Assembly: GCA_046583395.1 (NCBI GenBank)
Contig: JAYGCK010000004.1
Coordinates: forward strand, 337 to 64,336
Length of the DNA: 64,000 bases
DNA from: Deltaproteobacteria bacterium
GTDB lineage: Bacteria; Desulfobacterota; Binatia; UBA1149; CAYXZP01
Reading direction: 5' to 3'
Shown: one piece after another, positions 1-6,301 of the stretch
Layout of the letters: each line of letters starts with the position of its first letter
Position numbering within the stretch: position 1 is the stretch's first letter
Notes under the pieces: generated by a model
The model's input: the letters and a program-made list of their open reading frames with translations, nothing else
What the model was told of the DNA's origin: nothing
Database searches by the model: none
Made by a program: the position numbers and the translations under genes

Positions 1-2033
1 CCGCAAATGCCCAAGTAATCGAAGTCCAGCTTCACAGTCGACGGCCCCGGGCTACCGGTGGCGGCGTTGATCGCGGCACTAGACGAGGGTGCGGTGCAGA
101 AGTTCGAGACCAACTCCGAACCGTTCTGCGACGCAGATCCTTCAGCTGTAATGGGATCGTTGAAGCAGGCGCGGGTCTTGGTGAGGGAGCAGCTCCCACA
201 GTCGCCACCCTGGCACTCGCCGGCCATGGTGTCACAGTCGGCGTCCGCGGTGCAGGTGATGAAGCCATTGCCGTTGGCACGCAATGCGCCGTCGCAGTAG
301 CTGTCGACCGGACCAGCCAGGCATGTGCCGTCGGTGCATTCGCCGTCGGCGCAGGCGTTGGGCCAGCGGTTGGCGCCACCGCCATTGCTCGTGCAGGTCC
401 CGGCCCCGGTGGCCGAACATTCCGCGTCCGAGTTGCACGGCAAGGCCGAGTCACCCGAGCACGTCGCGCACGCACAGTCGAAGCCGGTGTAGGGAGAGTC
501 GCACTCAGTATCGAAGCCCATCGATATTGGGCTGTCGGTCAGGTTCAATATGACGGACAATCCCGTGCCCGAGATATTGGCTCCGTCAGAGGGGCACTCG
601 TAGCTGGTCGGCCCGAAGGTCGGATGGTTGCCGTTCTCATCACACGACTGAGCATCGCGCGAACCGCCGTCACAGGTCCCACCCCGTACGCCATCGTTCG
701 GTGTCGGGTCACCATCACAGGTCGGGCAAGGCTGACTAGCCGAGATGCCAATTCGGATGACCGAGTTCATCGTCACGGCTGTCTCAGTATGTCCGGTTCC
801 CATGTCGGCCTGGCCGTCCAGTTCAGCGGTCAGCTTGTTCTGTATGCAGACGGGGTTACCCGCCGATGACAGAGCAAGCGGGGGACCGAAGGTGCAGTGG
901 CACATGTTGCCTCCGCAGTCGTCGGCGTCGGCACCCTCGATCGTGTCGCAGCGGACTGTCGGATCATTAGCGCAACGGCAGTAACCGTCCGGACGGTCTT
1001 TCATCGGATCGATGGTGACGTTGCAATCCTTGCAGTCCGCGTCACAGGCCAGGCTCACAGAGCCGTGGAACCCGTCAAGAACGTCCACGCCATGGCCCAG
1101 TCCGGTCCAGCCGATATCGAGAGATGTGTTGGTCAGCTGCACGCCGGTACCAGCGTTGACGAACACGCGTGCGCCAGTGGCGCAGTTGCCCGGCAGTTCC
1201 CACTGGGCGGCTACCAGACCACCGGCTTGGGCACCGACGATCTCATCGATACAGTCCTTAATCTGCTGAGCAGTGTCGCCGCAGGAACCCAATGCGTTGA
1301 GCTCGACCTTGCTGAGCGAGCCGCAGCCCTTATCGATGGAGGACATGGCCTTGGCACGCGCCTTGGCGATCTTGCCTTTGCCGTCGTAGCTGCCCTGGTC
1401 CCACACAGCCGTGCTTAAAGCTTTATCCCTGCCGGCCTGGGCCTTTCCGCGTTCTTTGCTGACCGTGTCGACCCACTTCATGTAGGCCTTGGGCAGGGTG
1501 CCGTGGCATTTGGCCTGGCCCTTGCTGAGGCCGGTTGGGGAGCCGAGGATGTCACGGGCGCTTTGCTCGACCGCGGCGTTGGCCAAGGCGACCAGGCAGT
1601 TGCCCAACTCACCAAAGTCGTCGATGCCATCGGTGGCACCGCCGTCATCGTAGCCATTGGCCGGGCTGGGGCAGCGGCCGAAGTTAGCTAGTACAGCGTC
1701 GTAGGTGACGCCGGTCTTTTTGTCCTTACACTTGCTCTTGGCACCGTCGATCGATCCACGAAGCTTATTGGCCGCTTTAGGGATCTTGTTCTTGGTATCG
1801 GCGACACTAATGTCGTTGCAGGCCGTGCTCGATCCCACTTTGCCTTTGTCGCGGTTCTTGTGGCAGCCGCCGAGGGCTTTTTGAGCGGCCGATACATACT
1901 TGCCCAGTCCCTTGGATATGGTCGCGCGGCACTTGCCCTCGGCCTTGTCCCAGGCGTGAGCTGGCGCCGATGAGAACACCAGGCCAACCACTGCCAGCAT
2001 GGCAACGACTTTAGCGAACGAGAAAGCTTTCAT
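1..2033 (-). CDS. Secreted Cys-rich protein, paralog A of the 2310..4709 gene (partial; 3' end lies beyond the window start). Signal peptide MKAFSFAKVVAMLAVVGLVFSSAPAHA.
   Basis: ATG at 2031-2033 on the minus strand. Translating by eye gives a frame that appears open to position 1. It aligns residue by residue with gene B (AWDK..KCRATISKGLGKYVS, CHGTLPKAYMK, TGVQLTNT, GWTG.GHGVD, PTFG, ANISG, CNSDAECSA.GAGTCTSNGGGANRWPN.CADG.CTDG). It is not in the ORF track, presumably because no stop falls inside the window. Confidence 0.6.
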   Translation of the reverse strand, partial: MKAFSFAKVVAMLAVVGLVFSSAPAHAWDKAEGKCRATISKGLGKYVSAAQKALGGCHKNRDKGKVGSSTACNDISVADTKNKIPKAANKLRGSIDGAKSKCKDKKTGVTYDAVLANFGRCPSPANGYDDGGATDGIDDFGELGNCLVALANAAVEQSARDILGSPTGLSKGQAKCHGTLPKAYMKWVDTVSKERGKAQAGRDKALSTAVWDQGSYDGKGKIAKARAKAMSSIDKGCGSLSKVELNALGSCGDTAQQIKDCIDEIVGAQAGGLVAAQWELPGNCATGARVFVNAGTGVQLTNTSLDIGWTGLGHGVDVLDGFHGSVSLACDADCKDCNVTIDPMKDRPDGYCRCANDPTVRCDTIEGADADDCGGNMCHCTFGPPLALSSAGNPVCIQNKLTAELDGQADMGTGHTETAVTMNSVIRIGISASQPCPTCDGDPTPNDGVRGGTCDGGSRDAQSCDENGNHPTFGPTSYECPSDGANISGTGLSVILNLTDSPISMGFDTECDSPYTGFDCACATCSGDSALPCNSDAECSATGAGTCTSNGGGANRWPNACADGECTDGTCLAGPVDSYCDGALRANGNGFITCTADADCDTMAGECQGGDCGSCSLTKTRACFNDPITAEGSASQNGSELVSNFCTAPSSSAAINAATGSPGPSTVKLDFDYLGIC

Positions 2034-2127
2034 ACTTCTTACCCCCAACGTGGTTCTTTATAGCTTGTTCTTTCCATGTCCCCGGAGGGGTCCGTAAGGA
2101 TGGACCCCAGGCGAACGCGCAACGTAG

Positions 2128-2157
2128 AACTTAGTGACTTTGGGGCCCAAAAGTCAA
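2128..2157 (-). promoter_or_regulatory. Candidate sigma70-type promoter for paralog A (minus strand: TTGACT, 18 nt spacer, TAAGTT)
   Basis: rc of 2152-2157 = TTGACT. rc of 2128-2133 = TAAGTT. It lies ~95 nt upstream of the ATG at 2033. Confidence 0.3.
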
Positions 2158-2205
2158 GATATCTAGAGCAGCATTCCGACCACGGGCAGGGGATTTTACA
2201 CCTCT

Positions 2206-2223
2206 CCCCCCCCCTTAGGGGGG
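2206..2223. repeat. C9-TTA-G6 homopolymer hairpin
   Basis: ccccccccc tta gggggg read directly. It sits ~50 nt upstream of the putative -35 of paralog A. Confidence 0.6.
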
Positions 2224-2239
2224 CTGATGTAAAGGGCGG

Positions 2240-2277
2240 GAAGAAAAAAGCCCCGGGACCCTGTCGGCCCCGGGGCT
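2240..2277 (-). terminator. Rho-independent terminator of paralog B (minus strand)
   Basis: 8-bp GC stem gccccggg/cccggggc (2250-2257 with 2269-2276). On the minus strand it is followed by TTTTTTCTTCC (rc of 2240-2249). It lies 33 nt downstream of the stop at 2310. Confidence 0.55.
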
Positions 2278-2309
2278 TTCCTTGCCGTCTTACTGTACGG
2301 CCGTCGTCG

Positions 2310-4709
2310 TTAGTTCAGGCTAGCGCCGCTGTCTATCCAGTCACTAACGGCCTGGATTTGCGCTGCAGTGAGGGTCCCACCGGAGGGCATCTGCGCGCCG
2401 CTGCCTGTGCCCTCCAGCTTGTTAACCAAGTAGCTAAGTGACGAGTCTCCAGGCTCGACCAGGTCCGAGGGGGACTGACCCGACGTCACGCCGACAAGGG
2501 CATTGTATGAACTCACGGCGTCCTCGAATCCGCCCAGGCCCCCTGAGGCCGCACCACTGCTGTGGCAGCCTACACAGGACGACGAGATCGAGTCGTATAT
2601 GGCTCTCCAGGAATTCGCAGGAGATGTGCAGTTCGAACCCGCAGGGGGCTCGGCCACACTGCCATCGTCACAAAGGCCCTCGAATTCCATCGAGACCGTG
2701 ATCCGTGATGGTCCGGGGCTACCCGCAGCAGTGTTTATCGCCATACTATTCGAAGGCGGGGTACAAAATGTTGCTACCACGTCACCGCCGTTCTGACTGG
2801 TGTCACCTTCGGCGGTGATCGGGTCGGTGAAGCATGAGCGAGGCTCAGTGAGAGAGCAGGAGCCGCAGTCGCCTCCTGGGCACTCTGAGTTAAGAGCCTG
2901 GCAGTCTCCGTCGGTCTGACATGCCAGGATTCCCCCTCCATTGGCTCTGAGCATGCCGTCGCAGAAGGTGGCTGCCGGGCCAGCGTTGCAGACGCCGTCG
3001 GTGCAGACGCCATCGGCACAAGAGTTAGGCCAACGGTTGGCGCCACCACCGTTGCTGGTGCAGGTCCCTGCACCGGCCGCAGAACATTCCGCGTCCGAGT
3101 TGCACGGTAGGCTCGTGTCTCCCGAACATACCGCGCAGGCGCAGGCGTAACTCGTGAAGGGAGAGTCGCACTGCGTGTTGAACGGCAGCGAGACACTGCC
3201 CCCGGTGATGGTGAACGAGATATTCAGGCCCGCACCAGAGATGTTGGCTCCGTCCGGGGGGCAGTGGTAGCTGACCGATCCGAAGGTCGGGTGGTTAGCG
3301 TTCACGTCGCATGACTGACCGTCGCGCGATCCACCGTTGCATGTACCACCGTTGTTGCCGTCGTTGGCTGCACCGTCACCATCACAGGTAGGGCAAGGCT
3401 GACTCTGGCTGATCCCCAGACGCACGACCGCAGAACTCCTGATGGTGGTCTCGGCTGTGGCTGTCCCCTGATCGACCGATCCCTCAAGGTCATCGGTGAT
3501 GTTGGTCATAACGCACACCGGCGCACCGCCGGCAGAAAGTGGTAGCGGTGGTCCAAAGTGACAGTTGCATGTCGCGCCACCGCAGTCGTCAGCATCAGGT
3601 CCGGCTACGGTGTCGCAGGTCTGGGTGTAGTCGTTCGAGCAGCGGCAGTTTGCCCAGGGCTGGGTCTTGTCCGGGTCTAGCTCCACCCCGCAGTTGCGGC
3701 AGTCAGCATCGCAGCCGGTAAATGACGCCTGACCGATGAAGCCGTCGAGTATGTCGACGCCGTGCCCCATGCCGGTCCAGCCGGTATCAAGGCCGGTGTT
3801 GGTAAGCTGAACGCCGGTGCCAGCGAACGATTTGATCTGAACCTTAGCGGCACAGCGCGGCGCGATCACAAACTGAGATGACACTAAGCCGCGGGCCTGC
3901 TTGTCCGCGATGGTCTCAACGCAGTCCTTGATCTGCTGAGGAGTGTCGCCGCACGATTCGATCGCGTTCAGTTCTGCCAGGCTAAGCCCGCTGCAGCTCT
4001 TGTCGACGGACCCCATGGCCTTGGCAAGCGCTTTGGCGATCTTGCCTTTACCGTCGTAGTTGGCCTGGCTCCATACAGCCGTGCCACCGGCCTTATCGCT
4101 GCCGGCCTGGGCCTTCCCACGTTCCTTGGCCACGGTGTCGATGTACTTCATGTAGGCCTTGGGCAGGGTGCCGTGGCATTTGAGCTGCCCTTTGCTCAGC
4201 GAGCTGGGGCCAGGAAGCCCTATGATGTCGCGTGCGCTCTGTTGGACCTGGGCATTGGCTAGGGCGATCAGGCAGTCACCCAACTCACCGAAGTCGTCGA
4301 TGCCATCGGTGGCACCACCGTCGTCCGTTGCCTGGCCTGGGCTCGGACAACGTTCGAAGTTTGCAAGTACGTTGGTGTAGACTTGGCCGGACTTCTTGTC
4401 CTTGCACTTGCTCTTGGCGCCATGGATCGATCCACGAAGCTTACTGGCCGCTTTAGGGACCTTGGTCTTGATGTCAGCCTCACTGAGATCGTTGCAGTTC
4501 TTGCTCGACGAGATCTTGCCCTTATCGCGGCTTTTGTGACATCCGCCGATGGCCTTCTGGGCCGTTGAGACGTACTTGCCAAGCCCCTTGGAGATGGTTG
4601 CGCGGCACTTCATCTCGCCCTTGTCCCAGGCGTCAGCCGGGGCGGCCGACAGTACAAAAACGATCGCGGCCACGGTTGCGACTGCTTTGCTATATGCGGA
4701 TGTCACCAT
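2310..4709 (-). CDS. Secreted 799-aa Cys-rich protein (paralog B): signal peptide, Lys-rich N-terminal region, Cys-rich central region, C-terminal PSCyt1-like cytochrome-c-type domain (CVGCH ... VEPGDSSLSYLV ... MP ... WIDSGA)
   Basis: Complete ORF from the track. N-terminal MVTSAYSKAVATVAAIVFVLSAAPADA is a signal peptide. There are more than 60 Cys. The C-terminal ~90 aa match the PSCyt1 (PF07635-type) consensus, recalled from memory. A TAA stop and a terminator follow. Confidence 0.8.
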   Translation of the reverse strand: MVTSAYSKAVATVAAIVFVLSAAPADAWDKGEMKCRATISKGLGKYVSTAQKAIGGCHKSRDKGKISSSKNCNDLSEADIKTKVPKAASKLRGSIHGAKSKCKDKKSGQVYTNVLANFERCPSPGQATDDGGATDGIDDFGELGDCLIALANAQVQQSARDIIGLPGPSSLSKGQLKCHGTLPKAYMKYIDTVAKERGKAQAGSDKAGGTAVWSQANYDGKGKIAKALAKAMGSVDKSCSGLSLAELNAIESCGDTPQQIKDCVETIADKQARGLVSSQFVIAPRCAAKVQIKSFAGTGVQLTNTGLDTGWTGMGHGVDILDGFIGQASFTGCDADCRNCGVELDPDKTQPWANCRCSNDYTQTCDTVAGPDADDCGGATCNCHFGPPLPLSAGGAPVCVMTNITDDLEGSVDQGTATAETTIRSSAVVRLGISQSQPCPTCDGDGAANDGNNGGTCNGGSRDGQSCDVNANHPTFGSVSYHCPPDGANISGAGLNISFTITGGSVSLPFNTQCDSPFTSYACACAVCSGDTSLPCNSDAECSAAGAGTCTSNGGGANRWPNSCADGVCTDGVCNAGPAATFCDGMLRANGGGILACQTDGDCQALNSECPGGDCGSCSLTEPRSCFTDPITAEGDTSQNGGDVVATFCTPPSNSMAINTAAGSPGPSRITVSMEFEGLCDDGSVAEPPAGSNCTSPANSWRAIYDSISSSCVGCHSSGAASGGLGGFEDAVSSYNALVGVTSGQSPSDLVEPGDSSLSYLVNKLEGTGSGAQMPSGGTLTAAQIQAVSDWIDSGASLN

Positions 4710-4783
4710 GAATCAGATATCCCCCTGTTTGGTAGGTTCCCCTTAGCCTGGCCCACGAAGGGACAGCGGGGCACGTAACCGTC

Positions 4784-4813
4784 ATTGGTAGAAGCTAGTT
4801 CGGATGATGTCAA
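4784..4813 (-). promoter_or_regulatory. Candidate sigma70-type promoter for paralog B (minus strand: TTGACA, 17 nt spacer, TACCAAT)
   Basis: rc of 4808-4813 = TTGACA. rc of 4784-4790 = TACCAAT. A GGGGGA Shine-Dalgarno sits 12 nt before the ATG at 4709. Confidence 0.4.
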
Positions 4814-4967: not shown

Positions 4968-5654
4968 TTAGCCGGGAGCACCCATCATCGTTAGGAAATC
5001 CTCGACCCTTTCGAAACGCATGAAGGGGTTGTTGGTCTTCTCTCTCGCAATCGTCGAGGCCGGTTCTTCCGAGTAGGCGTGGCCCGGATAAAGGACCGTG
5101 TCGCCGGGCAATTTGGCCAGCTTTTGGGTCAGGCTGTAGTAGAGGTCGCTGGCATTGCTGCCGGGAAGGTCGACACGCCCGCAGGAGCCGATGAACAAGG
5201 TGTCGCCTGAGACCAGATTGTCGCCGGCCATGAAGCACTGCGAACCCGGTGTGTGTCCGGGCGTGTGGATGAAGCGAAGCGGGACCTTGCCGATACTGAT
5301 CTCGGTCTCGCCGTCGACGGCGACCATGTCGCTGGTCTCCAGTCCGATTGTTTGCGAGACCCAGGAGGCCTCTTCTTTGTTCACGTAGACCTTGACCCCG
5401 CGCTCTGTGAGCAACTCGGGGATACCGTCTATGTGCTGACCCATCATGTCCCCGCCTATGTGGTCGGGGTGAAAGTGGGTGACCAGCGCCCCGGTAAGCG
5501 TCATGTCGTCGTTGTCGAGCTGCTCGAGGATGGCCGGGATGTCCCACGCAGCATCGACCACCATCGCTTCGCGGCTTTCGGTGTCGCCGATGAGGTAGAC
5601 GTAGTTGGCCATCGGGCCGAGCAGCATCTGTTTCATGTATAGCGATGAGCCCAT
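4968..5654 (-). CDS. MBL-fold metallo-hydrolase (glyoxalase II-like)
   Basis: THFHPDHIGG (HxHxDH) motif, plus HTPGHTPGS and GDTLF. The start is chosen at MGSSLYMKQML (SD-like AGTAGGA); 5636 is an alternative start. Confidence 0.8.
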   Translation of the reverse strand: MGSSLYMKQMLLGPMANYVYLIGDTESREAMVVDAAWDIPAILEQLDNDDMTLTGALVTHFHPDHIGGDMMGQHIDGIPELLTERGVKVYVNKEEASWVSQTIGLETSDMVAVDGETEISIGKVPLRFIHTPGHTPGSQCFMAGDNLVSGDTLFIGSCGRVDLPGSNASDLYYSLTQKLAKLPGDTVLYPGHAYSEEPASTIAREKTNNPFMRFERVEDFLTMMGAPG

Positions 5655-5659
5655 CGGTC

Positions 5660-6301
5660 CTACTTCTTTGTCCTTGTGGCCTTCCGCTTGGACCTCTTCT
5701 TGGGGGACGGCTCGAGACCGTGTTGCCACAGGGTCTCCTTCTTGCGGCTCTTCTTTGCGATCCAGCGCGACTGCACGAACAGCAGGTCGCTGAGCCGGTT
5801 GAGGTAGCGCGCCGTCCACGGACCGGCGGCCTTCTTGCGTACCAGCGCGGTTACGGTCCTTTCGGCGCGCCTGCACACCGTTCGGGCCAGGTGGAGGGTC
5901 GCGCCTGCGGTACCGCCTCCCGGTAGCACGAAGGAACGGAGCGGTGCGAGGTCCTTTTGCAGCGCGTCCATCCCGGCCTCGAGCCTGTCGGTGTGCTTCT
6001 TGCCAACCGTAATCATTCCCTGGTAGGTCGCGCCGGGCGGGGTGGCCAGTTCCGAGCCCAGGTCGAACAGTTCCTGCTGGACGACTGCAAGTTCAGTGTC
6101 GAGGCGGCCCGAGGCCACCCGTCCTTTATAAGGGGGCTCGCCCAGGATTGCGCGTACCATGCCGACGACCGCGTTCAGCTCATCGACCTCGCCGTATGCC
6201 GAGATGCGCGGGTCGTCCTTGGGCACGCGCTTGCCGCCGACAAGGGCGGTTTTGCCGTCGTCGCCCGTGCGCGTGTAGACGCGGTTTATCCGTATGGCCA
6301 T
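5660..6301 (-). CDS. PduO-type ATP:cob(I)alamin adenosyltransferase with a 35-aa Lys/Arg-rich C-terminal tail
   Basis: N-terminus MAIRINRVYTRTGDDGKTALVGGKRVPKDDPRISAYGEVDELNAVVG is the classic PduO/MMAB signature. The tail reads KKSRKKETLWQHGLEPSPKKRSKRKATRTKK. Confidence 0.85.
   Translation of the reverse strand: MAIRINRVYTRTGDDGKTALVGGKRVPKDDPRISAYGEVDELNAVVGMVRAILGEPPYKGRVASGRLDTELAVVQQELFDLGSELATPPGATYQGMITVGKKHTDRLEAGMDALQKDLAPLRSFVLPGGGTAGATLHLARTVCRRAERTVTALVRKKAAGPWTARYLNRLSDLLFVQSRWIAKKSRKKETLWQHGLEPSPKKRSKRKATRTKK

Follow-up and report, generated by a model that had tools for sequence, protein, structure and literature searches.

What do two adjacent minus-strand genes at the left end of the window encode, and what could a cytochrome-like domain be doing at the end of one of them? 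The window is the whole stretch of DNA that was analyzed, 64,000 nucleotides of contig JAYGCK010000004.1. The sequence evidence supports the view that the products of both genes, here called A and B, are exported and disulfide-rich.

Two paralogous genes and their signals

Gene B is preceded by a Shine-Dalgarno-like GGGGGA ahead of its ATG (within 4707-4725), and its product is a 100% match to P0001, for which the NCBI entry has 787 aa and is labelled hypothetical. The two genes and their parts are the following.

1..2033, minus strand: gene A, partial coding sequence, 677 aa visible, in frame from base 3, cut by the left window edge
1953-2033, minus strand: signal peptide of gene A
1182-1949, minus strand: helical modules of gene A
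3-1181, minus strand: central module of gene A
2310..4709, minus strand: gene B, complete coding sequence, intact open reading frame of 799 aa
4629..4709, minus strand: putative signal peptide of gene B, aa 1-27, ending in ...SAAPADA before WDK, from reading of the sequence; A25 and A27 conserved; AF2 pLDDT below 50 for aa 1-24
4206..4625, minus strand: helical module N1 of gene B, aa 29-168, basic, 6 Cys, three long helices by DSSP on the AF2 model
3852..4205, minus strand: helical module N2 of gene B, aa 169-286, a duplicate of N1 by hhalign
2628..3851, minus strand: central acidic Cys-rich beta module of gene B, aa 287-694, 35 Cys plus C286, pI 4.05, predicted 8-stranded barrel core
2313..2627, minus strand: predicted C-terminal mono-heme cytochrome c-like domain of gene B, aa 695-799, from Pfam scores and homolog alignment A2

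A preliminary description of this DNA had taken the genes for tandem paralogs of about 800 aa each, identical at roughly two-thirds of their positions. The kinship stands, as BLASTP aligned A and B over 680 aa with 65% identity and 3 gaps. The length is right for gene B but not for gene A. The homolog P0004, which is 95% identical to gene A, has 692 aa, stops 15 aa past the window edge and lacks the cytochrome domain. By this comparison gene A is predicted to have a full length of about 692 aa and no cytochrome tail. Its visible part contains 45 Cys.

Upstream of and between the genes the following signals were recognized.

2244..2277, minus strand: intrinsic terminator downstream of gene B, AGCCCCGGGGCC-GACAG-GGUCCCGGGGCU followed by UUUUUCUU, from RNA folding
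4785..4813, minus strand: promoter-like element of gene B, TTGACA (4813..4808), 17 nt, TACCAA (4790..4785), kept upstream in L004, L008 and L001
2129..2157, minus strand: promoter-like element of gene A, TTGACT (2157..2152), 17 nt, CTAAGT (2134..2129), common to the window and L004
2206..2224, minus strand: C6-TAA-G9 palindrome between the terminator and the gene A promoter, found in L004 too

The terminator is as strong as had been supposed, with a GC stem of 12-13 bp and a U-run; the 88-nt region folds with -40.7 kcal/mol (z = -3.8). An Rfam search of the intergenic regions gave sub-threshold matches only, located on the terminator hairpin. The claim that each gene has its own promoter holds in part. 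A consensus promoter scan called no sigma-70 site for gene A or gene B, but both promoter-like boxes are conserved although the rest of the orthologous intergenic regions has diverged. A and B are thus tandem paralogs, and because of the terminator and these conserved boxes each is predicted to be transcribed separately.

The exported cysteine-rich core and its family

Both proteins start with a typical Sec/SPase I leader, as the preliminary description had stated. A hydrophobic core and an A-x-A before WDK can be read from the sequence, and A25 and A27 of the leader are invariant or nearly so among homologs. Gene B encodes 48 Cys (6% of its residues), of which the 46 non-heme ones form an even number. 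In the family alignment 34 columns are invariant, almost all of them Cys, and the variable Cys pairs (680-694, 610-615, 200-215 and 125-149) are present either with both members or with neither, with zero discordance in 77 sequences. N2 of gene B has lost the 200-215 pair, which 70% of the homologs possess. Because of this parity and the pairwise gain and loss, the data indicate that the non-heme Cys of gene B would form about 23 disulfides. A core so rich in disulfides would therefore be expected to fold outside the cytoplasm. Both a cell-surface location and heme binding, which the preliminary description had considered possible, are inferences.

The central region had been credited with more than 50 Cys in about 450 aa. 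This count was too high, since residues 287-680 (394 aa) contain 34; their richness in Asp, Gly and Asn is as described (G 57, D 33, N 25). Equally correct was the picture of a Lys-rich N-terminal region of about 250 aa, with 32 Lys in 258 aa and a pI of about 9.1 (9.15 for N1). The internal repeat noticed in this region is real and larger than claimed. It is a tandem duplication of N1 (29-168) and N2 (169-286), for which hhalign gave a probability of 99.1% (E 1.3e-18), and the helical region is composed of two copies of a basic, Lys-rich three-helix module that is stapled by disulfides.

The AF2 model of gene B has a pLDDT of 89 overall and >95 for aa 30-680. It is helical in aa 30-280 and beta-rich in aa 287-680, and the central module of about 400 aa is modelled as an acidic, 8-stranded meander beta-barrel with long loops. 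Among its conserved residues are H316, D319, R356, D360, D372, R462, R624 and N659. An internal repeat in the central module was ruled out, as hhalign of its two halves gave a probability of 0.8%. In the model the barrel resembles the 8-stranded antiparallel barrel of YceI-like proteins (PF04264), such as the polyisoprenoid-binding protein TT1927b and BcnA. However, the central module is about three times larger than the YceI-like, PsbO and DynF barrels, and differs by its predicted ~18 disulfides and long loops. Pfam gave no YceI match for the central module and hhalign of the central profile with a YceI protein gave 0.1%; profile comparison rejects a common origin of the central module with YceI or DUF5777. 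The helical region can be compared to the PhoU-like duplicated three-helix bundles and to the Pfg27 fold, with which it shares only 6-11% sequence identity. Unlike these, it would be extracytoplasmic, and it is Lys-rich, disulfide-stapled and devoid of evident metal-binding motifs. The likeness is probably topological only.

The suspicion that the family was undescribed has been borne out. When the N-terminal and central segments were searched by themselves, Pfam gave no match even at E <= 10, and an NCBIfam scan of A and B was negative as well. The family profile found a chance match only among PDB sequences (E 0.15), and Foldseek against the PDB and against BFVD viral models found none at E <= 1e-3. 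The homolog search returned 102 matches, all hypothetical and all without Pfam domains; each source-named homolog is called 'hypothetical protein'. Clustered at 50% identity, the family numbers 2,960 representatives with E <= 1e-3, and 634 if the limit is set to E <= 1e-30. The members come from Binatia, Binatota and UBP10 MAGs and from MAGs labelled by their submitters as Myxococcales, Deltaproteobacteria or Proteobacteria. The family is thus large, unannotated and centred on MAGs of Binatota (UBP10), an uncultured phylum of global distribution. No account of it was found in the literature on cysteine-rich proteins of Binatia and on PSCyt1. With ~3,000 clusters at 50% identity, a confidently foldable core and no counterpart in Pfam, NCBIfam or the PDB, it invites a domain definition that would clear a block of 'hypothetical' annotation in Binatota.

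The central module is found by itself, doubled, or as the C-terminal part of larger proteins in which it is combined with DUF4215, Cohesin, Lcl_C or beta-helix/PMP domains. A Pfam scan of 31 longer relatives gave extracellular-type modules or no match. What follows the core varies from member to member. In most of them the chain ends here, and in others this slot holds Thr-rich linkers with small Cys-knot repeats or DUF4215 repeats; in the small clade of gene B it is occupied by the cytochrome domain. Myxococcus-type Cys-rich repeat proteins with DUF4215 (PF13948 / TIGR02232) are similar to the family in being exported, disulfide-rich, modular and found in similar organisms, and several relatives have their central module joined to DUF4215 repeats. 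No such repeat (PF13948) was detected in A or B, whose core forms one large globular unit and not an array of short repeats.

Tandem arrays are frequent in the family, and the syntenic position is kept down to 40% identity. In L004 the copies at positions 1 and 2 are 74% identical, and the position-1 copy is 73% identical to its ortholog in the window; the pairs of L001 and L027 group within their own genomes. In close relatives the family genes lie in synteny with housekeeping genes for HPPK, transaldolase, a PAS/response regulator, Cob adenosyltransferase and an MBL-fold hydrolase. A functional operon or a conserved partner gene was ruled out, as distant members lie in unrelated contexts.

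The cytochrome-like tail of gene B

The elements of the tail that could serve in heme attachment and ligation are the following.

2562..2576, minus strand: putative heme-attachment motif CVGCH, aa 712-716, C-H invariant in A2, orthologs with Cx4CH
2385..2390, minus strand: Met774-Pro775, candidate distal heme ligand, M-P invariant in A2

Three Pfam models match this region, with gathering scores of 21.3 bits for Cytochrom_C (PF00034), 27 for Cytochrome_CBB3 (PF13442) and 22 for PSCyt1 (PF07635). Cytochrom_C reaches 23.8 bits with the isolated domain, which is above the gathering score, and 20.6 bits with the whole protein, which is below it. For CBB3 the values are 24.3 and 21.5 bits, both below 27, so that with the whole gene B protein both matches to the cytochrome clan remain under their gathering scores. 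In the 10 sequences of alignment A2, CBB3 matches all 10 and Cytochrom_C 4 of them. Throughout A2, with identities down to 36%, the C-H of heme attachment and the distal M-P are invariant and the upstream Cys stands at a spacing of 2 or 4 residues. The nearest relatives of the tail are stand-alone lipoproteins of ~150 aa that have lipoprotein leaders and no precomputed Pfam domain; in a direct Pfam scan, six of nine stand-alone relatives gave clan matches below threshold only. The best PDB sequence matches are weak and all cytochromes, namely FoxE (E 0.048), cytochrome c6 and the heme domain of hydrazine synthase alpha. AF2 places helices where they are expected, at low confidence (pLDDT 43.5 for the tail alone with the 10-sequence alignment, 50-70 in the full model). 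These data support a c-type cytochrome-like, putatively mono-heme domain of ~100 aa with CxxCH or Cx4CH and Met-Pro. As in class I cytochromes c, the CxxCH follows an N-terminal helix, the Met-Pro comes ~60 residues on, and a C-terminal helix closes the domain. In contrast to these cytochromes, it is appended to the C-terminal end of a disulfide-rich protein of 690 aa that is unrelated to it. Such a tail was found in 4 of about 252 family members examined.

The tail had been described as a PSCyt1 module, a domain that usually lies N-terminal to DUF1549/DUF1553 (PSD) domains. It could indeed be a true member of the PSCyt1 lineage that has moved out of this context. The tail shares the PSCyt1 motif layout, CxxCH ... 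GGL ... (V/E)PG..S.L ... MP, including CVGCH and Met-Pro. The PSCyt1 match recurs in gene B, P0002, P0003 and P0237 over nearly the whole of the 59-position model (positions 1-56 in gene B) and is the sole match for P0002 and P0003. However, every tail scores below the gathering score of 22: gene B has 15.8 and 15.5 bits, P0002 16.9, P0003 16.8 and P0237 20.6. The score of gene B is exceeded by those for CBB3 and Cytochrom_C, and in A2 PSCyt1 matches only 4 sequences of 10. Moreover, A, B and the relatives that were scanned have no match to DUF1549 or DUF1553, and the closest relatives are the stand-alone lipoproteins and not Planctomycete multidomain proteins. We consider descent from PSCyt1 rather unlikely. 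'PSCyt1-like' is a fair resemblance as far as the motifs go, with membership not demonstrated.

Possible roles of the core and its putative heme domain

In view of the above, several roles can be considered. The best reading overall, to which we would give about an even chance, is that the proteins are extracytoplasmic binding scaffolds and that gene B has in addition a tethered one-electron carrier. The core would then be no enzyme but a stable scaffold for binding, located in the periplasm or at the cell surface, with the barrel holding or presenting a ligand, possibly one that is lipophilic or redox-active. The tail of gene B would tether a His/Met-ligated heme c to this scaffold as a one-electron carrier, and the heme domain could exchange electrons with the ligand or with a partner docked on the barrel. 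Gene A and most other family members would perform the binding step only. This mechanism is suggested because genes for stand-alone, lipoprotein relatives of the tail are followed directly by genes for YceI-type 8-stranded lipid/isoprenoid-binding barrels. In two lineages a cytochrome gene lies directly upstream of a bona fide YceI gene, and the two cytochromes are 35% identical. The link to gene B would be one of analogy and not of homology, and is drawn from two gene pairs.

Alternatively, A and B may be structural or adhesive proteins of the surface or matrix, similar to coat proteins or adhesins, in which the core is a rigid disulfide-stabilized block and the cytochrome tail of gene B is incidental. 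The fusion of the central module elsewhere to Cohesin, Lcl_C, beta-helix/PMP and DUF4215 and the Thr-rich linkers would agree with this, as would the signs that the arrays (L004, L001, L027) were shaped by repeated duplication or by gene conversion, the separate promoter-like elements and the strong terminator after gene B. The opposite charges of the two halves (pI 9.1 and 4.05) would suit self-association or the binding of a charged polymer. However, no lipobox, PEP-CTERM, LPXTG or T9SS domain was seen in A, B or the tails examined, and a structural role leaves unexplained why the heme-binding residues of the tail are retained. We regard it as possible, if somewhat unlikely; if the function were structural only, this would be an ordinary lineage-specific family of secreted proteins. 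A barrel embedded in the outer membrane, like OmpW or OmpA, with the Cys-rich loops exposed from this anchor, is scarcely credible. Outer-membrane barrels score as well as YceI-like and other soluble barrels in the fold comparison, but the soluble PsbO, DynF, YceI and avidins come close to them. With a pI of 4.05 the central module is acidic; it has few aromatic residues (18 in 408) and a GRAVY of -0.19, and its ~18 predicted disulfides are distributed across strands and loops. A terminal aromatic beta-signal is also missing: in close relatives the core ends in ...PGGSNCP, and gene B runs on into a soluble domain.

The high Cys content, the presence of CxxC at four places in the core (aa 337, 439, 525 and 615) and the weak Pfam scores and low-confidence model of the tail could also mean that the Cys bind metals, as in metallothioneins or Fe-S proteins, or that the CxxCH tail is degenerate and carries no heme. 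The export signal peptide, the strictly pairwise gain and loss of Cys with an even count, the compact fold predicted with high confidence without cofactors and the invariance of C-H and M-P in distant tail relatives argue against this, and we hold it to be very improbable. To return to the binding scaffold, a more far-reaching version would be that the duplicated helical module and the 18-disulfide barrel constitute a new extracytoplasmic fold class, a carrier of lipophilic or redox-active compounds. Gene B and its few orthologs would then be natural fusions of such a barrel with its cognate lipoprotein-type cytochrome c and would define a new electron-transfer module of Binatota, located in the periplasm or outside the cell and paralleling the cytochrome-YceI pairs. 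In this full form the proposal appears doubtful. The rare cytochrome c fusion and the cytochrome-YceI pairs together offer a testable lead on a joint role of 8-stranded periplasmic barrels and lipoprotein cytochromes.

Genes A and B and their family

The two neighbouring minus-strand genes at the left end of the window belong to an exported, disulfide-stapled, three-part modular and undescribed family whose members often stand in tandem, and gene B carries a rare cytochrome c tail.

2310..4709, minus strand: gene B, intact ORF, 799 aa
ATG at 2033, open to the left window edge, minus strand: gene A, 677 aa visible

The proteins are 65% identical over 680 aa with three gaps (BLASTP), as expected for the tandem paralogs of roughly two-thirds identity recognised in the preliminary description; tblastn with gene B found no further copy in the whole window. 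Gene A, earlier taken to encode about 800 aa, is about 692 aa long and without a cytochrome tail, because its 95% identical homolog P0004 stops at 692 aa, 15 residues past the window edge. The leaders of both proteins are hydrophobic and end in A-x-A followed by WDK, with these alanines conserved family-wide, in agreement with the Sec signal peptides assigned before. NCBI places the gene B start 12 codons further in than the ATG at 4709 (window 4673-4709; P0001, 787 aa); the longer start is the better call because of an SD-like GGGGGA upstream and the alignment with the gene A N-terminus.

The N-terminal 258 aa of gene B are indeed Lys-rich (32 Lys, pI about 9.1); the central module has a pI of 4.05 and abundant G, D and N. 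The more than 50 Cys reported for the central region were an over-count: residues 287-680 contain 34, residues 29-286 contain 11, and C694 and two in CVGCH bring the whole protein to 48. An AlphaFold2 model built with 77 homologs as input (mean pLDDT 89, pTM 0.83, >95 over residues 30-680) is all helical over residues 30-280, each half consisting of three long helices. Profile-profile comparison identifies residues 29-168 and 169-286 as a tandem duplication (probability 99.1%, E 1.3e-18), which accounts for the short internal repeat noticed earlier, and finds no internal repeat within the central region 287-680. The latter is beta-rich in the model, and structure comparison places it near the barrels of OmpW, PagL, PsbO, OmpA, DynF, YceI and avidins; Foldseek against PDB and viral models gave no match at E <= 1e-3.

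The family alignment has 34 invariant columns, almost all Cys. The variable pairs 680-694, 610-615, 200-215 and 125-149 are both present or both absent in 77 of 77 sequences, and gene B has an even number (46) of non-heme Cys. Paired loss, even count, Cys conservation and the signal peptide together indicate an extracytoplasmic protein with about 23 predicted disulfides and no metal clusters. The best-conserved non-Cys polar residues are the His and Asp of LDxGWTGxxH. In the relative P0094, the opening part of the central module recurs incompletely in the C-terminal tail (aa 543-621; GGVLDTGWTGISHD...), and this motif with it.

No Pfam or NCBIfam model covers the core, i.e. the helical and central modules, and the 102 relatives from a word-indexed search are all hypothetical and without a Pfam domain, so that the family is as unrecognised as first thought. 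The core has no named relative or significant solved structural neighbour; the tail belongs to a known domain type. An exhaustive profile search gave 2,960 representatives of 50%-identity clusters at E <= 1e-3 and 634 at E <= 1e-30. Among GTDB species representatives the close relatives are Binatia, Binatota and UBP10 MAGs, some from MAGs labelled Myxococcales or Deltaproteobacteria by their submitters. The central module is mobile: it occurs alone, duplicated, or C-terminal in larger proteins with Cohesin, Lcl_C, beta-helix/PMP repeats or DUF4215 Cys-rich repeats, which we take to be mostly extracellular modules. The core is followed by a variable slot, where most members end; others carry Thr-rich linkers with small Cys-knot repeats, or DUF4215-like repeats.

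The cytochrome-like tail

Pfam scores of gene B (bits: whole protein; tail alone; gathering score)
Cytochrome_CBB3: 21.5; 24.3; 27
Cytochrom_C: 20.6; 23.8; 21.3
PSCyt1 (PF07635): not listed; 15.8 (E 0.022); 22

Only Cytochrom_C reaches its gathering score, and solely for the isolated tail. The proposed likeness to PSCyt1 holds for the motif layout but not for the score, which stays below threshold for gene B and for the orthologous tails (16.8-20.6 bits). Closest to the tail are ~150-aa lipoproteins without a precomputed Pfam domain. The heme-motif His with its adjacent Cys and a Met-Pro are invariant among them, and the first Cys is spaced as CxxCH or Cx4CH. Gene B (CVGCH, window 2562-2576) and the ortholog P0237 (CVSCH) have the former; the orthologs P0002 and P0003 and most stand-alone relatives have the latter (C-A-[AT]-S-G-C-H), so that the heme motif differs even between close orthologs. 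Weak PDB matches of the tail profile are all cytochromes (FoxE, E 0.048; cytochrome c6; hydrazine synthase alpha); the tail folded alone gave an unusable model (pLDDT 43.5). We conclude that the tail is a predicted divergent mono-heme class I-type cytochrome c domain. It is a recent, lineage-specific fusion, present in only 4 of the ~252 family members compared.

Directly behind each of two stand-alone lipoprotein relatives, P0106 and P0111, which share only 35% identity, lies a YceI (PF04264) gene (L023:8001-9970; L029:1072-2101); the YceI scores are 58.5 and 96 bits, where the gathering score is 23.7. The former locus continues with a DUF5777 'membrane bound beta barrel' gene. The cytochrome and YceI genes appear to form a conserved but unnamed pair. 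YceI is an 8-stranded barrel, like the gene B core, and the same kind of cytochrome that neighbours YceI is fused to the core in gene B. The likeness is analogy only, since core and YceI share no sequence homology.

Possible function

The core could serve as a stable extracytoplasmic binding scaffold to which the gene B tail would tether a one-electron carrier, perhaps for electron exchange with a ligand or partner that the barrel holds; we give this reading about an even chance. No new mechanism is demonstrated. As an exported, modular, Cys-rich protein to which a cytochrome c module is joined, gene B belongs to a known kind; a new electron-transfer module made of barrel plus cytochrome seems an unlikely reading. 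The main competing explanation is a surface protein with a purely structural or adhesive role, favoured by the extracellular-type fusion partners of the central module, by the dynamics of the arrays and by the opposite charge of the N-terminal and central halves. Embedding of the core barrel in the outer membrane is less likely in view of its composition. Metal binding by the Cys fits poorly with their loss in pairs, and a dead heme site in the tail with the invariant heme ligands of its relatives; both are less likely than the tethered-carrier scaffold.

Arrays and transcription signals

The genes occupy a slot in the order HPPK, transaldolase, small ORF, PAS/response-regulator, Cob adenosyltransferase, MBL-fold hydrolase and family genes, an order kept even where relatives are only 40% identical. 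More distant members are found in unrelated surroundings, with no partner gene to define a pathway. Orthologous loci hold two copies (L001, L027) or three (L004, L008); the copies of the latter (L004:10001-17055, L008:6001-13055) are 817, about 697-702 and 687 aa long. By this pattern the sequence just past the left window edge may hold a third copy. In a distance tree gene B groups with L004 position 1 and gene A with position 2, and the L001 and L027 pairs each group within their own genome. L004 position 1 is 74% identical to position 2 and 73% to its window ortholog. This within-genome clustering and near-equal identity point to arrays shaped by repeated duplication, gene conversion, or both.

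The strong terminator proposed between the genes was recovered just past the gene B stop.

2244-2277: hairpin with a GC stem of 12-13 bp, then a U-run

Its 88-nt region folds at -40.7 kcal/mol (z = -3.8 against shuffles). A consensus scan found no sigma-70 promoter, but alignment of orthologous upstream regions revealed elements conserved amid diverged DNA, TTGACA-17 nt-TACCAA before gene B and TTGACT-17 nt-CTAAGT before gene A, which make the suggested separate promoters plausible. Rfam gave no real match at these signal regions, and the whole window (1-64000) has zero tRNA genes and zero Rfam families at gathering score. A C6-TAA-G9 palindrome (2206-2224) between the gene B terminator and the gene A promoter-like boxes is kept at the same place in L004. 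The mechanically called ORF at 4968-5876 (302 aa) shares sequence with that of the Cob adenosyltransferase (5660-6301); since the MBL-fold hydrolase has 228 aa in orthologous loci, an internal Met near 5650 is probably its real start.
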